Source of the DNA: Saccostrea echinata
Taxonomy: Eukaryota
Direction: 5' to 3'
DNA: 64,000 nt
Assembly (NCBI RefSeq): GCF_033153115.1
Contig: NW_026889762.1
Coordinates: 5,788,496-5,852,495, forward strand
Shown here: piece after piece, positions 19,256 to 56,150 of the stretch
Position numbering within the stretch: position 1 is the first letter of the stretch
How the letters are laid out: every line of letters begins with the position of its first letter
The notes under the pieces: generated by a model
What the model saw: only the letters and a program-made list of their open reading frames with translations
Told to the model about the DNA's origin: nothing
The model's database searches: none
Program-made: the position numbers and the translations under genes

Positions 19256-19393
19256 ATGATGGTGGAGTATGGTATGGAGGATACAGAGTTATCTACCCCT
19301 GTGAAGGAGTTGATGCATCACATCTGGCAGGAAGCTGGGGGCGAGATAGAGGAAATCTTAAGTAGCCCACTACAGTCACTGAAACTGGACCAG
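19256..19393 (+). CDS. PARP4: PARP4-like exon 6 MMVEYGMEDTELSTPVKELMHHIWQEAGGEIEEILSSPLQSLKLDQ
   Basis: Matches human LSQEVSDLVEMIWAEALGHLEHMLLKPVNRISLNDVSK. Acceptor cataacattcAG at 19254-55; donor CAG|GTCAGT at 19394. Confidence 0.85.
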
Positions 19394-20320
19394 GTCAGTA
19401 GGTTAGGTCACTGCTATACAGTTACTGAAACTGGACCAGGACAGTAGGTCACTACAATAAATGAAACTGGACCAGGTCAATAGGTCACTACAGTCACTGA
19501 AACTGGACCAGGTCAGTAGGTCACTACAATAAATGAAACTGGACCAGGTCAGTAGGTCACTACAATAAATGAAACTGGATGAGGTCAGTAGGTCACTACA
19601 GTCACTGAAACTGGACCAGGACAGTAGGTCACTACAATAAATGAAACTGGACCAGGTCAATAGGTCACTACAGTCACTGAAACTGGACCAGGTCAGTAGG
19701 TCACTACAAATGAAACTGGACTAGGTCAGTAGGTCACTACAGTCACTGAAACTGGACCAGGTCATTAGGTCACTACAATAAATGAAACTGGACCAGGTCA
19801 ATAGATCACTACAGTCACTGAAACTGGACCAGTTCAGTAGGTCACTACAATAAATGAAACTGGACCAGGTCAGTAGGTCACTACAATAAATGAATCTGGA
19901 CCAGGTAATTGGTCACTTCAGCCACTGAAATGGTATCAGGACAACATGTCACAGCAGTCACTGAAAATGGAATCAGGTGAATAGTTGCTACAATATTGAC
20001 ACTGGACCTGGTCAATACACTCTCTGAAAAATGAATAAGGTCAATAGGCCACTACAGTTGGTGAAACTGGACCAGGTCAAGAGGTCACTAAAGTTACAAG
20101 AAATGGACCAAGTAAGTGAGTCATACAGTCACCAGGAGGTTAGGTCACTATAGTCACTGGACCAGGTCAGTAGGTCACTACAGTCACTGGACCAGGTCAG
20201 TAGGTCACTACAGTCACTGGACCAGGTCAGTAGGTCACTACAGTCACGGGATCATGTCAGTAGGTACCATAAGTACTGAAACTGGACCACACCATTAGCT
20301 CCATACAGTCACTGAAACTG
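19372..20320. repeat. Intronic minisatellite of about 25 copies of a 36-bp unit (two alternating variants in a 180-bp higher-order period), derived from the exon 6 / intron 6 junction
   Basis: Unit tcactaca(gtcactg|ataaatg)aaactggaccag|gtcagtagg. Every unit repeats the last 14-17 nt of exon 6 plus the GTCAGT donor. Lines at 19441 and 19621 are identical (180-bp period). A degenerate 30-bp variant repeats four times at 20150-20260. Confidence 0.9.
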
Positions 20321-20519
20321 TGACAATAGATTTAGTGGTTATTTAATAGTACTCAGTTTCTGTAGTCTTGCAACAATTAGTCAAATATCACTTGACAAAG
20401 CAACAGATATTGTCATAAAGTAAATCTGACATCCCTATTTCTAATTTGAAAATGTTAGGTTAACTTTTCAAGAAATTCCACAGACCAGTTAAATGAAAAA
20501 TAAATGACGTTCATTGTAG

Positions 20520-27548: not shown

Positions 27549-28727
27549 GTATGACCGTCATTATACTTGTCTGGTAAAATTTGATGAAAAGTACAATGTA
27601 CTATTGCATTAGACCTTTGGCATTGTATTGTATTACATTGACAGGGAGTCTGTTCATGACAGGATAACAGGAACTCTTTTTTTTCATAACTTATTTTCTT
27701 CTTATGTTAATCCTGAATTGTACGTTCGTAATAAATACGTTTTACCAAATGTGTTGAAACTAAATTTAGTGTCAATATTAACCCAAGCTTTCTTACGCTT
27801 GGTGTCTGGATCAATGTTCATAGTTAATTACATTTACAAAACTACCCGATTAATTAAGAAATAATTAAGTGAAATTAACTCTTTCACCAGTCTGTCCAAG
27901 CGTATGCTCATCAGTGTATCAATTAATTTTAATTATACGGCGACATTAAGTGTAAATAGGTAATTTTTTTATGTCTACTTTGGATGAATAAAGAAACAAT
28001 TTGAATGCATGCTTTGTTGCTGTGTTAATTTATTTAATATGTGACCAAAAAAAAAAAAAAAAAAAAAAACCAAACGAAACATTGGTAATTTGAATTGACC
28101 ATAAATTAAAAATGAAAGTAGATCAAAATAAACAAGATGGATGCCAAGGGATCTAGAAGATTGAGTTTGAAGAGTATTAAGCTTTATTTAAGTGAATTTA
28201 TTTATAATAAAAACTTGAAACAGTAAGTAAATATTGTGAAATGATATGTCAATTAAAACTTGTATTTCAAATAAACCTAAAAAATCGAAATTATATGTAA
28301 CGTAAGATGTATAATACATCCAATAATTTACACAAACGTCGTATCGTCAGCCGTCCGACATGAATTTCATCCAACTATGGTTATTATAAAAGTCGCTTAT
28401 TATAAAGTTTTGGCCTGACAAATAAACTATGATAATAAACGAATTGTACTGTATTTTGAAACCTCTACTTAGTTAATAGACAAAACATTTTCTTTTTAAC
28501 GAAAGTTTGGTTTGACATTAAAATGCTATAGGTAGTGATGACACCTTAAAAATTTTTGAAATTATACCTTAGGTAAAATATTTTGTGAAAACTTCCACAT
28601 ATGTAGGTAGTAAAAATGTACAGGCATTAACTGCACAAGGTGTTAAGTACATTTTAGGTGGTGTATTTTGTAGAGGACTGCCACACAAGGTGTTTAATAC
28701 ATTATTTTATTTTGTTGCATTTTGTAG

Positions 28728-28862
28728 AGAACTGCCACTAAAGCTACTGTAGAGATGAAAGAGGACCAGACAATAGAAGATGGCTTCCAGTTGCTGATAG
28801 GTCTAGCAGAGATCCACGTGCCGCGAATGTGGGTGGAATCGGACGAAGGCGAAGATTCACAG
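28728..28862 (+). CDS. PARP4: PARP4-like exon 17 RTATKATVEMKEDQTIEDGFQLLIGLAEIHVPRMWVESDEGEDSQ
   Basis: Matches human RTDCKAVISTMEGSSLDSSGFSLHIGLSAAYLPRMWVEKHPEKESE. Acceptor ttgcattttgtAG at 28726-27; donor CAG|GTATTC at 28863. A partial copy of the acceptor plus the first 14 nt lies 50 bp upstream (28650-28665: ttttgtagaggactgccaca). Confidence 0.9.
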
Positions 28863-29217
28863 GTATTCCATAATAGTTGTGTATTTACCTTTTCCTTATT
28901 ATCTCAACTAAAAAAGAATAAGCTTGATAAATGCTTAAAAAGCATATTAAGTACAAGAGCAAGTTAAAGGAATTTAATTAAACTTAGCCTTTGAAATTAA
29001 TTTTTTTGATTTTAAAAGGATTATGTTGTAACAGTTTTTAAAGAGCCAAAATTAGATAAAAGACATATACTTTGTATATGCGTAAAATTTCTTTTTCAGC
29101 AAAGCATATATTAACTGCAAATTCATTCATGATACAATTTTTAAGGAAGTCTCAGATAAACGCACTTTTAGTTCTGAGATTTGAATTAAGATTTTGAATG
29201 CCACTGAGGCTAGACTC

Positions 29218-30087
29218 TCACAAATGTTTTACTGAGTCTAGTTTTCTGTTAGTTAATCACTGCTGGATTGTCAGTGAGTTACTTAACAGGCCTGTGTGCT
29301 GACCTATTACCCTGAGTCTTATTCTCTCTCAGTAAGTCACTGTTGATATGTTTACTGGTTTTATTACAGGCCTGTATGCTGACCTTTTACCCTGAGTCTT
29401 ATTCTCTGTCAGTTATTCACAGTTGATATGTTTACTGGTTTTATTACCAGGCCTGTATGCTGACTTTTTACTCTGAGTCAAATCCTCTGTCAGTTATTCA
29501 CAGTTGATATGTTTACTGGTTTTATTACCAGGCCTGTATGCTGACTTTTTACTCTGAGTCAAATTCTCTGTCAGTTATTCACAGTTGATATGTTTACTGG
29601 TTTTATTACCAGGCCTGTATGCTGACTTTTTACTCTGAGTCAAATCCTCTGTCAGTTATTCACAGTTGATATGTTTACTGGTTTAATTACCAGGCCTGTA
29701 TGCTGACCTTTTACCCTGAGTCTTATTCCCCGTCAGTTATTCACAGTTGATATGTTTACTGGTTTTATTACCAGGCCTGTATGTTGACTTTTTACTCTGA
29801 GTCAAATCCTCTGTCAGTTATTCACTGTTGATATGTTTACTGGTTTTATTACCAGACCTGTATGCTGTCCTTTTAATCTGAGTCAAATCCTCTGTCAGTT
29901 ATTCACTGTTGATATGTTTACTGGTTTTATTACCAGGCCTGTATGCTGACCTTTTAAGTATCTGAGTCTAATCCTCTGTCAGTTATTCACTGTTGATATG
30001 TTTACTGGTTTAATTACCAGGCCTGTATGCTGACCTAATTCTCTGTCAGTTATTCACTGTTGATATGTTTACTGGTTTTATTACCAG
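29218..30087. repeat. Intronic tandem repeat of about 10.5 copies of an 80-82-bp unit that ends exactly at the exon 18 acceptor. Each unit contains the acceptor and the first about 30 nt of exon 18
   Basis: Unit ...gttgatatgtttactggttttattacCAG|GCCTGTATGCTGACCTTTTACCCTGAGtcttattctctgtcagttattcaca. The last unit runs straight into exon 18 (ACMLTFYPE...). Upstream units carry an in-frame TGA (cacagtTGAtatg). Confidence 0.9.
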
Positions 30088-30274
30088 GCCTGTATGCTGA
30101 CCTTTTACCCTGAGTTTGAGGCCGAGGAGGAGTCAGAGGTCGAGGTCATTTTGATGATTGACAGCTCCAACTCCATGAAAGGCTCCGCCCTACAACAAGC
30201 CAAGAAGGCTGCTCTATTGACTCTTCACCTCATGGAGTCCAGTTGGAGATTTAATGTGGTGTCTTTTGGAACAG
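30088..30274 (+). CDS. PARP4: PARP4-like exon 18 (VWA domain start, MIDAS-like DSSNS) ACMLTFYPEFEAEEESEVEVILMIDSSNSMKGSALQQAKKAALLTLHLMESSWRFNVVSFGT
   Basis: Matches human EACMLVFQPDLDVDLPDLASESEVIICLDCSSSMEGVTFLQAKQIALHALSLVGEKQKVNIIQFGTG. Acceptor ttttattaccAG at 30086-87; donor ACAG|GTACAA at 30275; ends phase 1. Confidence 0.9.
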
Positions 30275-30626: not shown

Positions 30627-30700
30627 CTTTCCAAGAGCTTTTCCCATCCAGTCAGCCTGCTAGTAAATCCAACATACAGACAGCAAAACAGTTCATACAG
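30627..30700 (+). CDS. PARP4: PARP4-like exon 19 (VWA) (A)FQELFPSSQPASKSNIQTAKQFIQ, followed by a GC donor
   Basis: Matches human YKELFSYPKHITSNTMAAEFIMSA. Acceptor ttgtatgtttcAG at 30625-26. The only donor compatible with the phase-0 start of exon 20 is CAG|GCAAGA at 30701-02 (GC-AG intron); no in-frame GT is available before the TAA at 30722. Confidence 0.7.
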
Positions 30701-30792
30701 GCAAGAAATAAGAATTACTAACACCCAGGATCAGTGAAAATTAATACTGCTTGTATATTTATTATTAATTTTTCTTTTGATTTCTCCTTCAG

Positions 30793-34739: not shown

Positions 34740-35049
34740 GTTATCTTCACCTCTAGTCATAGGAGTATACAATGGAATGTACATACATGTGATCTATAAC
34801 AACTGTTTCTTATACCAACAGAAAAATAGGAGAAGAATAAAAAATTCATTGTGAAATAAGATATATATTTATATTTTGTTTTCTACCAAGGATGAGAGTT
34901 CACCTCCACTCATAGGAGTATACAATGAAATGTACATACATGTAATCTGTAACAACTGTTTCTTATACCAACTGAAAAAAAGGAGAAAAATAAAAAAAAA
35001 TCCTTGTGAAAGCAGATATATAATTATTTATATTTTGTTTTCTACATAG
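34740..35049. repeat. Tandem duplication (2 x about 150-165 bp) ending at the exon 27 acceptor. The upstream copy carries a pseudo-acceptor plus first 12 nt of exon 27
   Basis: 34860-34892 tattttgttttctaccaAGgatgagagttcacctcc parallels 35030-35066 tattttgttttctacatAGgatgagagttcagagag. The bodies (agtcataggagtatacaatggaatgtacatacatgt... / actcataggagtatacaatgaaatgtacatacatgt...) are also collinear. Confidence 0.85.
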
Positions 35050-35103
35050 GATGAGAGTTCAGAGAGTTCAAGCGATGAAGGAGAAACGGAAGAGTCTTCC
35101 ACG
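35050..35103 (+). CDS. PARP4: Acidic-tail exon 27 DESSESSSDEGETEESST
   Basis: Phase-0 open frame between acceptor ttttctacatAG (35048-49) and donor ACG|GTAAAT (35104); Ser/Glu/Asp-rich. No vertebrate counterpart identified; assignment rests on phase continuity. Confidence 0.55.
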
Positions 35104-49149: not shown

Positions 49150-49750
49150 TCTTCTGTGTCCAGACCTGTTTCTAGTGGGATCACAATAATCTTAGCATAA
49201 GAATTCCATGATACTTGGGTGGTCTCAACCTGATCAGTAGTCTAACTTGAGTAATGGTCTTAACCATAACAGGAGTCTAATCTTAATCTGAGCAGTAGTC
49301 TTAACCTGATCAGTTGTCTAGCCTGAGTAGTTGTCTTAACCTGATCAGTTGTCTAACCTAAGTAGTTGTTTTAACCTGATCAGTTGTCTAACATGAGCAT
49401 TTGTCTAATGTGAGCAGTTGTCTAACCTTAGCAGTTCTCTAACCTGAGCAGTAGTGTTATAACCTGAGCAGAGGTCCTAACCTGAGCAGTAGTCTAAGCC
49501 TGAGCTGTAGTCTTTACCTGAGCAGTTGACTAAACCTGATCAGTAGTCTTAACCGGAGCAGAAATCTTAACCTGAATAGTTGTCTAAGCCTGAGCAGTAG
49601 TCTAACCTGAGCAGTGGCCTCAGCCTGAGCAGTTGTCTTAACCTGAGCAGTAGTCATAGCCTGAGCAATAGTCTTTACATGAGCAGTTGTCTTATAACCT
49701 GAGCAGAAGCCTTAACCTGAGCAGTTGTTTTAACCTGAGCTGTAATCTAA
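49150..49750. repeat. Intronic minisatellite of about 33 copies of an 18-bp unit TAACCTGAGCAGTWGTCT
   Basis: Direct read; imperfect units (cctgagcagtagtct / cctgatcagttgtct, etc.). Confidence 0.9.
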
Positions 49751-49995
49751 GCTGAGAAAATCATTGATAATACTCGGGTGTCAAACAAGACCCATGAGCA
49801 ACTTGTCCAAACTTCATGAAATGTATGAAAGACAAGTGTAGTAAAAATTTCAAGTCTTGAATGCATGTAAACATAGGGACTACTGGTGAAACTGTAGAAT
49901 ACTTTCCACATGTTTAACTCTTTTAAGTTTGTTAACATAATATTGAAATAACAAAAGACACTGTTTATAGAATGTTCCAGTCTTTTTGTTTTTAG

Positions 49996-55026: not shown

Positions 55027-56150
55027 TTAGCTCACCTGAGCTCAAACTCAAGTGAGCTTTTCTGATTACCGTCGTCCGTCCGTCCGTCTGTCTGTCTGCC
55101 TGTCCGTCCGTCTGTAAATTTTTCATATTTTCAACTTCTTCTCAAGAACCACTGAGCCAATTTTACCAAAGTTGGTACAGAGCATCCTTGGGTGAAGGGG
55201 AGTTTAAATTGTTAAAATGAATGGCCATCCCCCTTTGTAAGGGGAGATAATCATAAAAAGACAAAAATAGGGTGGGGTCATTAAAAAACCTTCTTCTCAA
55301 GAACCACTGGGCCAGAAAAGCTGAAACTTATGTGGAAGCATCCGGGGGTAGTGTAGATTCCAAATTTTTCAAATCATGTCCCCCGGGGGTAGGGCGGGGC
55401 CACAATAGGGAATCAAATTTTTACATTGAAATATATAGGCAAAATCTTTAAAAATCTTCTCAAGAACCACTGGGCCAGAAAAGCTGAACCTTATGTGGAA
55501 GCATCCTGGGGTAGTGTAGATTCCAAATTGTTCAAATCATGGCCCCCGGGCCCTCGGGGGTAAGGCGGGACCGCAATAGGGATTGATTGATTGTATGTTG
55601 TTTTATGTCCCATTCGAGAATTTTTCACTCATATAGAGACGTCACCATATACCGGTGAAGGGCTTCAAATTTTGACCTTTACTCGGCACTTAGGGCCATT
55701 GAGCAGTGAGGGATCTTTATCGTTCCAACGCCTGCCGTGACACGGGGTCTCGGTTTTTAAGGTCTCATCCGAAGGACCCACAACTTTCACTTCAAAGTGC
55801 CGAGCGCATGGCGAAGGAACAGTTGCTACCCTTTTTTTATCGACTTAGGTCAGTCGCGGCCGAGATTCTAACTCACAACCTCCCGATCACGAAGCGAGCG
55901 CTCTACCGACTGAGCTACCATGGATGGTCCACAATAGGGCATCAAAGTTTTACATTGAAATATATAGGCAAAATCTTTGAAAATCTTTTTCTCAAGAATC
56001 ACTGTGCTAGAAAACCTGAAACGTATATGGAAGCATCCTTGGGTAGGGCGGGGCCGCAATAAGTATTACGAGGGAGGGGGGTCTGGTGAAGAAGAACAGG
56101 GCCAAAGTAACTCAGGTGAGCGTTGTGGCCCATGGGCCTCTTATTTAATG
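55027..56150. mobile_element. Full-length copy of the TTAGCTCACCTGAGC MITE family, interrupted by a SINE insertion
   Basis: 5' ttagctcacctgagctcaaactcaagtgagct plus (GTCC/GTCT)n, 166-bp-type units, 3' ...aactcaggtgagcgttgtggcccatgggcctc. A G11 tract lies about 120 bp upstream. Confidence 0.8.
55581..55930 (-). mobile_element. tRNA-derived SINE (tRNA-Lys/Arg-like head) inserted into the MITE, with 8-bp target-site duplication CAATAGGG
   Basis: Minus strand from 55930: ggaccatccatggTAGCTCAGTCGGTAGAGCgctcgcttcgtgatcgggaggttgtgaGTTAGAATCtcggccgcgac... (A-box and B-box-like), body about 330 nt, tail (CAAT)n on minus = gattgattgattg at 55581-55593. Host sequence ccgcaataggg|...|acaatagggcatc repeats caataggg on both sides. 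Confidence 0.75.

Follow-up and report, generated by a model that had tools for sequence, protein, structure and literature searches.

In human F7, the first 37-bp unit of a minisatellite in intron 7 lies across the boundary between exon 7 and intron 7 (Borensztajn et al. 2006, PMC1557585), and the pseudo-donor sites formed by the repeat are functional yet lose to the most upstream site, a behaviour for which the authors invoked 5'-to-3' scanning (PMC1557585). Further donor-side boundary minisatellites have been described in intron 2 of IFI6 (6-16), intron 13 of CBS, LMNB2 and intron 4 of PDGF (PMC1557585), the 25-bp tandem repeat of variable copy number (VNTR) in intron 18 of ABCA7 takes in the donor of exon 18 (De Roeck et al. 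2018, PMC5954066), and internal tandem repeats are found at exon-intron boundaries in human segmental duplications (PMC2812944). Here we describe an acceptor-side array of this kind in the PARP4 gene of the oyster Saccostrea echinata, located in a 64,000-nucleotide stretch of DNA (assembly GCF_033153115.1, contig NW_026889762.1, positions 5,788,496 to 5,852,495 of the forward strand) that we call the window and whose coordinates are used below. In this gene, intron 17 ends in a tandem array of an 81-bp unit that repeats the exon 18 acceptor together with the beginning of exon 18, so that ten decoy acceptors precede the authentic one. We consider it likely that the array is a lineage-specific intronic minisatellite born in place, for which neither a function nor a junction-specific mutational mechanism is needed.

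Open reading frame (ORF) fragments on the + strand of the window matched, in this order, the Pfam domains BRCT (1e-10), PARP (4e-31), VIT (3e-35) and VWA_3 (1.5e-6), which is the domain order of PARP4 (vault poly-ADP-ribose polymerase). The best protein match of the concatenated query was the 'protein mono-ADP-ribosyltransferase PARP4-like' of Saccostrea echinata (P0005), and the next one was the Crassostrea/Magallana gigas PARP4, with 78% identity. An exon map was drawn up under the criteria of GT/GC-AG introns and an exact translation. It contains 33 coding exons extending from 15986 to 50072, whose spliced translation agrees with P0005 in 1406/1406 residues. An earlier note on this DNA, made from the letters alone, had numbered the exons and introns of the region exactly as in this map. 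The features around the array are the following:

28728..28862, + strand: exon 17, whose donor TCACAG/gtattc (a slash marks the splice junction) pairs with the exon 18 acceptor (exact exon map)
28863-30087, + strand: intron 17, 1225 bp
28863..29208, + strand: unique 5' part of intron 17, 346 bp, about the size of the whole ancestral intron
29209..29289, + strand: edge unit of the array (u0), decayed, ending in ...acttaacag (aligned to the 81-bp units, with many differences)
29290..30087, + strand: ten decoy units (TRF, unit dissection and alignment)
29290, 29370, 29451, 29532, 29613, 29694, 29775, 29856, 29937 and 30021, + strand: first exon-like bases of the ten decoys
30088, + strand: first exon base of the authentic acceptor copy (AG at 30086..30087), the most downstream of 11
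30088..30274, + strand: exon 18, 187 nt, ACMLTFYPEFEAEEE...VVSFGT, start of the VWA domain
30088-30115, + strand: the 28-nt segment of exon 18 that is repeated in the array
30116..30155, + strand: purine-rich GAR tract TTGAGGCCGAGGAGGAGTCAGAGGTCGAGG..., a candidate exonic splicing enhancer directly after the duplicated segment

Tandem Repeats Finder (TRF) detected an 81-bp tandem array at 29283-30034 with 9.3 copies and 92% matches, confirming the repeat. A second call at 29968-30103 (period 67, 2.0 copies) corresponds to one unit with a 14-bp deletion. A pattern search for the junction core cag/GCCTGTATGCTGAC found 11 copies, 10 of which are intronic decoys while the 11th adjoins the ORF. With its edge unit, the array occupies positions 29209-30087 and consists of one decayed unit plus 10 units. 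The extent given in the earlier note (29218-30087, about 10.5 units) was thus a fair estimate, TRF and alignment together placing the start of the decayed unit at about 29209. The note had also assigned the first 30 nt of exon 18 to every 81-bp unit; the junction is indeed copied, but the exonic segment measures 28 nt and the ten decoy units are 80, 81 (seven units), 84 and 67 bp long. One 3-bp insertion and one 14-bp deletion are present in the non-standard units, and two unit subtypes can be told apart.

Each decoy unit is made up of no more than 28 nt of the start of exon 18 followed by ~53 nt of intron tail, the latter containing branch-point-like TTGAT/TTTAC motifs, the pyrimidine tract ggttttattacc and an AG. 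Units therefore end in ...ttttattaccag/, after which come at most 28 nt of exon 18. The exon-derived segment is identical to exon 18 in units 2 and 6 (28/28) and matches it at 20-26/28 positions in the other units. The pyrimidine tract and the AG are kept in 10/10 decoys, and all 11 acceptors are identical from at least -20 to +16, which means that intrinsic 3' splice-site strength cannot discriminate between them. Identity between units is 96-99% in the centre of the array and the edge units are the most diverged. Such a homogenised centre with decayed edges fits a real array that evolves by unequal exchange and not an assembly artefact. Within the 81-bp unit, a search for a sub-repeat gave no significant result (P=0.27). 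As a side observation, unit 1 (29290-29337) alone has a consensus-like donor core, TCA/GTAAGT, 42 nt past its AG. These 42 nt (ACVLTYYPESYSLS) are in frame and stop-free and could conceivably form a micro-exon with a poor acceptor pyrimidine tract, an idea that is purely speculative.

The annotated protein reads ...DEGEDSQ/ACMLTFYPE... across this junction, which corresponds to the last acceptor of the array. The identification of the last unit as the true 3' splice site of exon 18, already made in the earlier note, was borne out both by this translation, equal to the annotated protein, and by a boundary common to 7 orthologues. Entry at any decoy leads to a premature stop. After the decoy AG, the first in-frame stop is a TGA at codon 19 in units 1-7 and a TAA at codons 7, 7 and 6 in units 8-10; the in-frame TGA predicted earlier for the upstream units is accordingly confined to the first seven. 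For units 2-10, the distance to exon 18 is also out of frame. The sequence downstream of the authentic copy has a purine fraction of 0.62 and 6 GAR motifs, against 0.35-0.40 and 0 GAR motifs in all ten decoys, which run on into intron sequence rich in pyrimidines.

To place the array in the evolution of the gene, the junction was compared in three short related bivalve contigs containing exon 18 (L001, L002 and L009) and in the complete genes of Mytilus galloprovincialis, M. edulis, Pinctada imbricata, Mercenaria mercenaria and Ylistrum balloti (L024). Exon 18 starts with ag/GCN TGY ATG... at the same codon in the 3 contigs and in all complete bivalve genes compared, it is 187 nt long in all five mapped bivalve genes, and cross-species conservation starts exactly at the first base past the AG. 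No array was present at the intron 17/exon 18 junction of L001, L002, L009, M. galloprovincialis, M. edulis, P. imbricata or M. mercenaria. Because these array-free relatives share the exon 18 boundary, the window array is lineage-specific. Comparison of orthologous introns, which the earlier note had proposed as a check, returned a conserved boundary and an array absent from 7 taxa. Intron 17 measures 468 bp in L001 and 291-338 bp in Mytilus and Mercenaria, and is 2792 bp and array-free in Pinctada. Intron tails were also compared between species for evidence of an in-situ origin of the intronic half, but they were too diverged to align. In L002, a suspected degenerate duplicate of the exon 18 acceptor (~390-412) was dropped since its score of 19 in the junction-echo scan was not significant. 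In L009, a 79-nt exon-internal fragment (1333-1407 versus 1083-1161, the start of the homologue of window exon 20) is copied 250 bp upstream with 92% identity; this copy is not a boundary-spanning tandem unit, and it was rejected as a junction array and counted as non-junction. The same contig has no intron between the homologues of window exons 19 and 20.

We propose that the array arose by an ~81-bp tandem duplication across the intron 17/exon 18 boundary, which would have taken up ~53 nt at the end of the intron and 28 nt at the start of the exon. The number of copies would then have risen to ~11 through unequal exchange or slippage, expanding a short ancestral intron to 1225 bp. Whenever a boundary is duplicated in this way, one copy would still adjoin the remainder of the exon, and a normal mRNA would thus be possible provided that the most downstream acceptor is used. 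Use of a decoy would lead to a stop within 6-19 codons and presumably to nonsense-mediated decay (NMD). As only the authentic copy continues into the GAR tract and into a 187-nt exon with a donor, we infer that it may win by exon definition through the purine-rich enhancer.

The earlier note had seen a mirror image of the acceptor array at the donor of exon 6 and had suggested that exon boundaries are recurrently duplicated in this gene. The exon map supports both statements, and adds two cases with two copies each, at exons 17 and 27; more cases were found in other molluscs. The boundary duplications of the window gene are, besides the exon 18 array:

19256..19393, + strand: exon 6, MMVEYG...SPLQSLKLDQ, whose last ~26 nt plus donor seed the 36-bp array
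19394..20330, + strand: donor-side junction array of intron 6 (TRF and junction enumeration)
28634..28743, + strand: acceptor of exon 17, an old two-copy (~50-54 bp) duplication (84% over 31 nt and an in-register 18/20 block)
34746..35061, + strand: acceptor of exon 27, a two-copy 153-159-bp duplication (TRF, 90% over 42 nt, exon map)

The intron 6 array is built of 36-bp units with a 72/108-bp higher order and a 30-bp variant at 20141-20265. The authentic donor lies between 19393 and 19394 and is followed by 18 further copies of the junction up to position 20255, in 15/18 of which the GT is kept. The annotated protein reads ...LKLDQ/VEKAT..., which corresponds to the first donor of this array; all the decoy donors are out of frame, and reading through the authentic donor meets a stop at 19445. 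The donor sequence GGACCAG/gtcagt is common to L017, L018, L020 and L022. Intron 6 is 1126 bp long in the window versus ~170 bp in array-free relatives, with a unique remainder of ~190 bp that is close to the ancestral length. Judged by these comparisons, the arrays of introns 6 and 17 are both recent lineage-specific expansions of short ancestral introns. At exon 17, the decoy TGGTGTATTTTGTAG/AGGACTGCCACACAAG stands against the real TGTTGCATTTTGTAG/AGAACTGCCACTAAAG; the decoy ttttgtag/AGGACTGCCAC lies 54 bp upstream of the real ttttgtag/AGAACTGCCAC, and its frame stops at codon 8. At exon 27, which starts at 35050, the duplication copied 12 nt of exon plus the pyrimidine tract, giving the decoy ...TTTTCTACCAAG/GATGAGAGTTCA and the real ...TTTTCTACATAG/GATGAGAGTTCA.

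Boundary-spanning arrays were also found in related sequences, namely at the donor of exon 19 in L002 (998-1112, 55 bp x2), at the donor of exon 16 in L007 (2996-3698, 40 bp and at least 17 copies) and at the donor of exon 20 in L009 (130 bp x3). Donor arrays of exon 16 and exon 19 were observed as well in Pinctada (L026 12761-13036, 67 bp x4) and in Mercenaria (L027 26761-27217, 40 bp x10), respectively. Coincident junctions such as these occur at roughly the chance level for ~14 events on ~64 junctions. First tests had pointed to an enrichment of arrays at boundaries (5/8, P=0.004; 6/10-12, P=0.0007-0.008), and they were withdrawn after counts in complete genes, the early signal being due to an ascertainment bias from short exon-centred metagenomic contigs and the compact 5' half of the gene. 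For replication, six complete mollusc PARP4 genes were used, with exact exon maps for five species and, for abalone, a map obtained by tblastn. Echoes were sought in an unbiased scan of all windows, fragmented events were merged, each junction was verified, and the counts were compared with a seed-placement null. In the six other mollusc genes, 8 of 118 arrays (about 7%) spanned a boundary versus 11.24 expected (P(<=8)=0.19), and in the window gene this was the case for 2 arrays by the strict count (4 with the two-copy cases) of 11, versus 2.15 expected. This indicates that boundary-spanning arrays are neither enriched nor clearly depleted with respect to random seeding. No junction-targeting mechanism is thus needed, and the suggestion in the earlier note of a special mechanism, such as replication slippage seeded by the junction sequence, is not supported by the counts, which match random placement of seeds (8 versus 11.2 of 118). 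The recurrence is due to the very high density of minisatellites in mollusc introns together with tolerance of boundary duplications. Among the clearly verified boundary arrays, ~12 are donor-side and 2 acceptor-side (binomial P ~0.02), or ~14 versus 6 when weaker cases are included.

The second multi-copy acceptor array was found at the homologous junction of the scallop Ylistrum balloti (L024 20356-21298), where 28 copies of a 33-bp unit take up the 1046-bp intron 17. This unit, yTAG/GCCTGTATGTTGACATT.TAC..., combines ~21 nt of exon with ~12 nt of intron, has a 165-bp higher-order period and shows 82% identity between copies. The last copy is the authentic acceptor, an in-frame stop is present in all 27 decoys, and the exon continues into a purine-rich tract (purine fraction 0.60), in contrast to the decoys, as in the oyster. 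The oyster and scallop arrays differ in unit size (81 versus 33 bp) and in the position of the exonic breakpoint (+28 versus +21), and 7 other taxa are array-free, which argues for independent origins. The two share an exon 18 start, AG/GCCTGTATG, that was found only in these two array-bearing species among the taxa compared. In addition, the last ~25 nt of the oyster intronic half (GTTGATATGTTTACTGGTTTTAT, window 30040-30087) match the scallop unit (GTTGACATTGTACTGTTTTAT) at 19/23 positions (shuffle P=0.006), while the same comparison with the other six species gave P values of 0.06-0.9. This match may represent an older, decayed junction copy nested in the 81-bp unit. In the abalone Haliotis rubra (L028 20513-22461), a donor-side array of ~25 copies of a ~70-bp unit lies at the 5' end of intron 17, the unit comprising the last ~40 nt of the exon 17 homologue plus GTAGGC..., and past the exon 14 homologue (boundary 16975) lies a second donor array, whose 11 additional copies are spaced 70 bp apart.

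Four points weigh against an array that is simply a minisatellite born by chance. The evidence that the last acceptor is used comes from homology and from a computational gene model. The winner in the donor-side cases of the literature is the first site in the 5'-to-3' direction, and here it is the last of 11, so that a positional first-site rule cannot explain the choice made in the oyster. By pure chance, the scallop array would share this junction with a probability of roughly 1 in 30. Finally, variable columns are rarer in the splice-signal half of the decoys (6/43) than in the exon-derived half (13/38, P=0.04), which could hint at constraint on the decoys. The last two points together have suggested a broader reading, in which the intron 17/exon 18 junction of bivalve PARP4 would be a place where 10 (oyster) to 27 (scallop) intact upstream acceptors are bypassed for the most distal one, and where origin in two lineages would reflect either a sequence-determined hotspot of duplication or selection for a decoy function, for example tuned unproductive splicing of PARP4. 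If true, this pattern would be the opposite of the first-site-wins behaviour of donor arrays, but we regard it as unlikely. Its two components can be weighed separately. A mutational hotspot, that is, a junction sequence prone to tandem duplication, comes close to the junction-seeded slippage of the earlier note, and candidate causes would be the direct repeats TTTAC (intron tail) and TTTTAC (Phe-Tyr codons) or the CAGGCCTG palindrome at the junction. Arrays of seemingly independent origin at the homologous acceptor in oyster and scallop, the exon 18 start confined to these two species, the 19/23 match with its suggestion of an older nested copy, and the expansion of the same intron 17 from the donor side in abalone would all agree with it. 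However, whole-gene counts match random seeding, seven taxa are array-free despite very similar exon starts, the coincidence (~1 in 32) was calculated post hoc, and the sub-repeat test in the oyster unit was not significant, all of which makes a hotspot rather improbable. A functional array, either a decoy platform that tunes PARP4 through unproductive splicing and NMD or intron retention, or a recruiter of U2AF or branch-point factors that aids recognition of exon 18, appears very unlikely to us. It draws on the retention of pyrimidine tract and AG in all ten decoys, on their less variable splice-signal half, on the nearly invariant core of the L007 donor array (0.22 versus 1.84 differences per column), on the scallop array at the same junction, and on the effect of ABCA7 VNTR length on splicing (PMC5954066). 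Against this, the array is absent from close relatives and most bivalves and is thus not a conserved feature of the gene, the frequency of boundary arrays equals chance, and the window donor array shows no stronger conservation of its splice core than of its other positions (0.89 versus 0.81), with GT lost in 3 units. The test of selection on the decoy splice signals is moreover confounded by shared unit ancestry and higher-order repeat structure, and its results were mixed.

Assemblies are prone to error at tandem repeats, and a repeat that was collapsed or inflated might in principle mimic such a structure. The unit-specific differences of the oyster array, which are non-periodic and include the two subtypes, the 3-bp insertion and the 14-bp deletion, its seamless flanks of unique intron and conserved exon, and the occurrence of comparable arrays in five other molluscs that were assembled independently make an artefact highly improbable. 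Insertion of a mobile element or satellite, or an array that itself encodes an alternative-exon cassette or a cluster of small nucleolar RNAs or microRNAs, we find barely conceivable. Dispersed-looking satellites do occur in the window (the 166-bp array at 36005-38718 and related units at 45497-45925), but the 81-bp unit is made of local sequence, its 28 nt being homologous to and continuous with exon 18, and no other copy of it was found within the 64-kb window. There was no Rfam match at gathering level in either array, no open frame of more than 53 codons across the acceptor array on either strand, and no donor of at least 7/9 consensus in the decoy units. A fold of three units gave z = -2.4 versus shuffles, with only 5-6-bp stems that are common to the authentic site. 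A lineage-specific minisatellite that arose in place from the intron 17/exon 18 boundary hence remains our preferred explanation.

Other observations concern the rest of the gene and the window. The donor of intron 19 (30701-30702), after exon 19 (30627-30700), is a GC (ATACAG/gcaaga), the only non-GT donor among 32 introns; it is needed to match the annotated protein, and the corresponding donor in L002 is an ordinary GT. At exon 31 (47925-48093), the PARP4-like model ends in an acidic tail plus an actin-like fragment. The Pfam actin domain (PF00022) is also listed for the PARP4 models of M. gigas, Pinctada, Mytilus edulis, Ptychodera, Nematostella and Rhopilema, which suggests that an actin-like C-terminus is a conserved invertebrate feature replacing the MVP-interaction domain of vertebrates. 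The satellite at 36005-38718 lies in intron 27 and has 16.5 copies of its 166-bp unit, and the related 153-bp units at 45497-45925 lie in intron 30; we take both to resemble the common bivalve satellites of 160-170 bp that are linked to Helitron-like elements. GTCT/CCGTCTGT microsatellites recur beside satellites (35805, 43918, 55069 and 59660; region 35700-36000). Intron 32 contains an 18/36-bp array at 49222-49756 (~15-25 copies, 75% matches, unit GTCTTAACCTGAGCAGTT) with a donor-like CTCAG/GTTAAGAC on the minus strand, and no link to an exon was found on the + strand. An ORF fragment in intron 30 (47567-47725, ...NDVWEIQQIMKENIENVLERGEKLDSLIEKSELM...), outside the annotated PARP4 product, resembles the SNARE motif of synaptobrevin/VAMP. 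The only Rfam gathering-level match in the window is tRNA-like (55858-55919, minus strand, 29.9 bits versus a 29-bit cut-off). This borderline match in a repeat-rich region is possibly a tRNA-derived short interspersed nuclear element.

Where a minisatellite repeats a splice site, nature has set up a competition experiment on the choice between sites, and the acceptor array points to exon-definition cues located just past the duplicated 21-28 nt. Duplication of a junction appears to be about as harmless as duplication of plain intron, and thus a routine route to a three- to seven-fold growth of short introns. Such arrays are also likely error spots for gene predictors and short-read assemblies.

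The oyster array resembles the F7 minisatellite in that its terminal unit lies across an exon boundary, pseudo-sites are present in the intron, and splicing goes to the copy contiguous with the exon, normally in F7 and by the gene model in the oyster; that copy is also the one used in IFI6, CBS, LMNB2, PDGF and ABCA7. It differs in orientation and composition, since F7 is donor-side with units of 4 nt of exon plus 33 nt of intron in 5-9 copies and the oyster array is acceptor-side with 28 plus 53 nt, and in the identity of the winner, which is the most upstream site in F7, where the pseudo-sites were shown to be functional by experiment, and the most downstream of 11 predicted sites in the oyster. 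In IFI6, CBS, LMNB2 and PDGF, the first monomer likewise lies across the boundary, and units of up to 81-100 bp in 10-25 copies are comparable to those of the oyster; these arrays are donor-side, and the two nearest pseudo-sites are constitutively used in IFI6 and CBS. In ABCA7, occasional use of a decoy retains one unit and causes a frameshift and a premature stop, as predicted in the oyster. However, the ABCA7 repeat is donor-side, varies from 12 to 427 units and has effects on exon skipping and disease risk, whereas the oyster array represents one haplotype, with no second contig of the species found in the collections searched. Intron changes by tandem duplication of the type described by Rogers share with the oyster the extra copy of a splice signal that is hidden by splicing (PMC3265369, PMC4974935, PMC2812944), but there a new intron arises from a duplicated exon, while the oyster intron is ancestral, occupies the same position in all relatives examined and was merely lengthened. 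The closest likeness in kind is the scallop array, with the same junction, an authentic last copy, decoys with stops and a purine-rich continuation, and it is set apart by its 33-bp unit, 28 copies and lower unit identity. A limited literature search found no natural acceptor-side precedent, which is no proof of absence. Altogether, the oyster array agrees with boundary-spanning minisatellites of the F7/ABCA7 type in being a head-to-tail intronic array whose terminal unit lies across a boundary, and differs from them in not lying on the donor side, where the exon 6 array of the same gene does lie. It is a known kind of element in an acceptor orientation that has rarely or never been reported.

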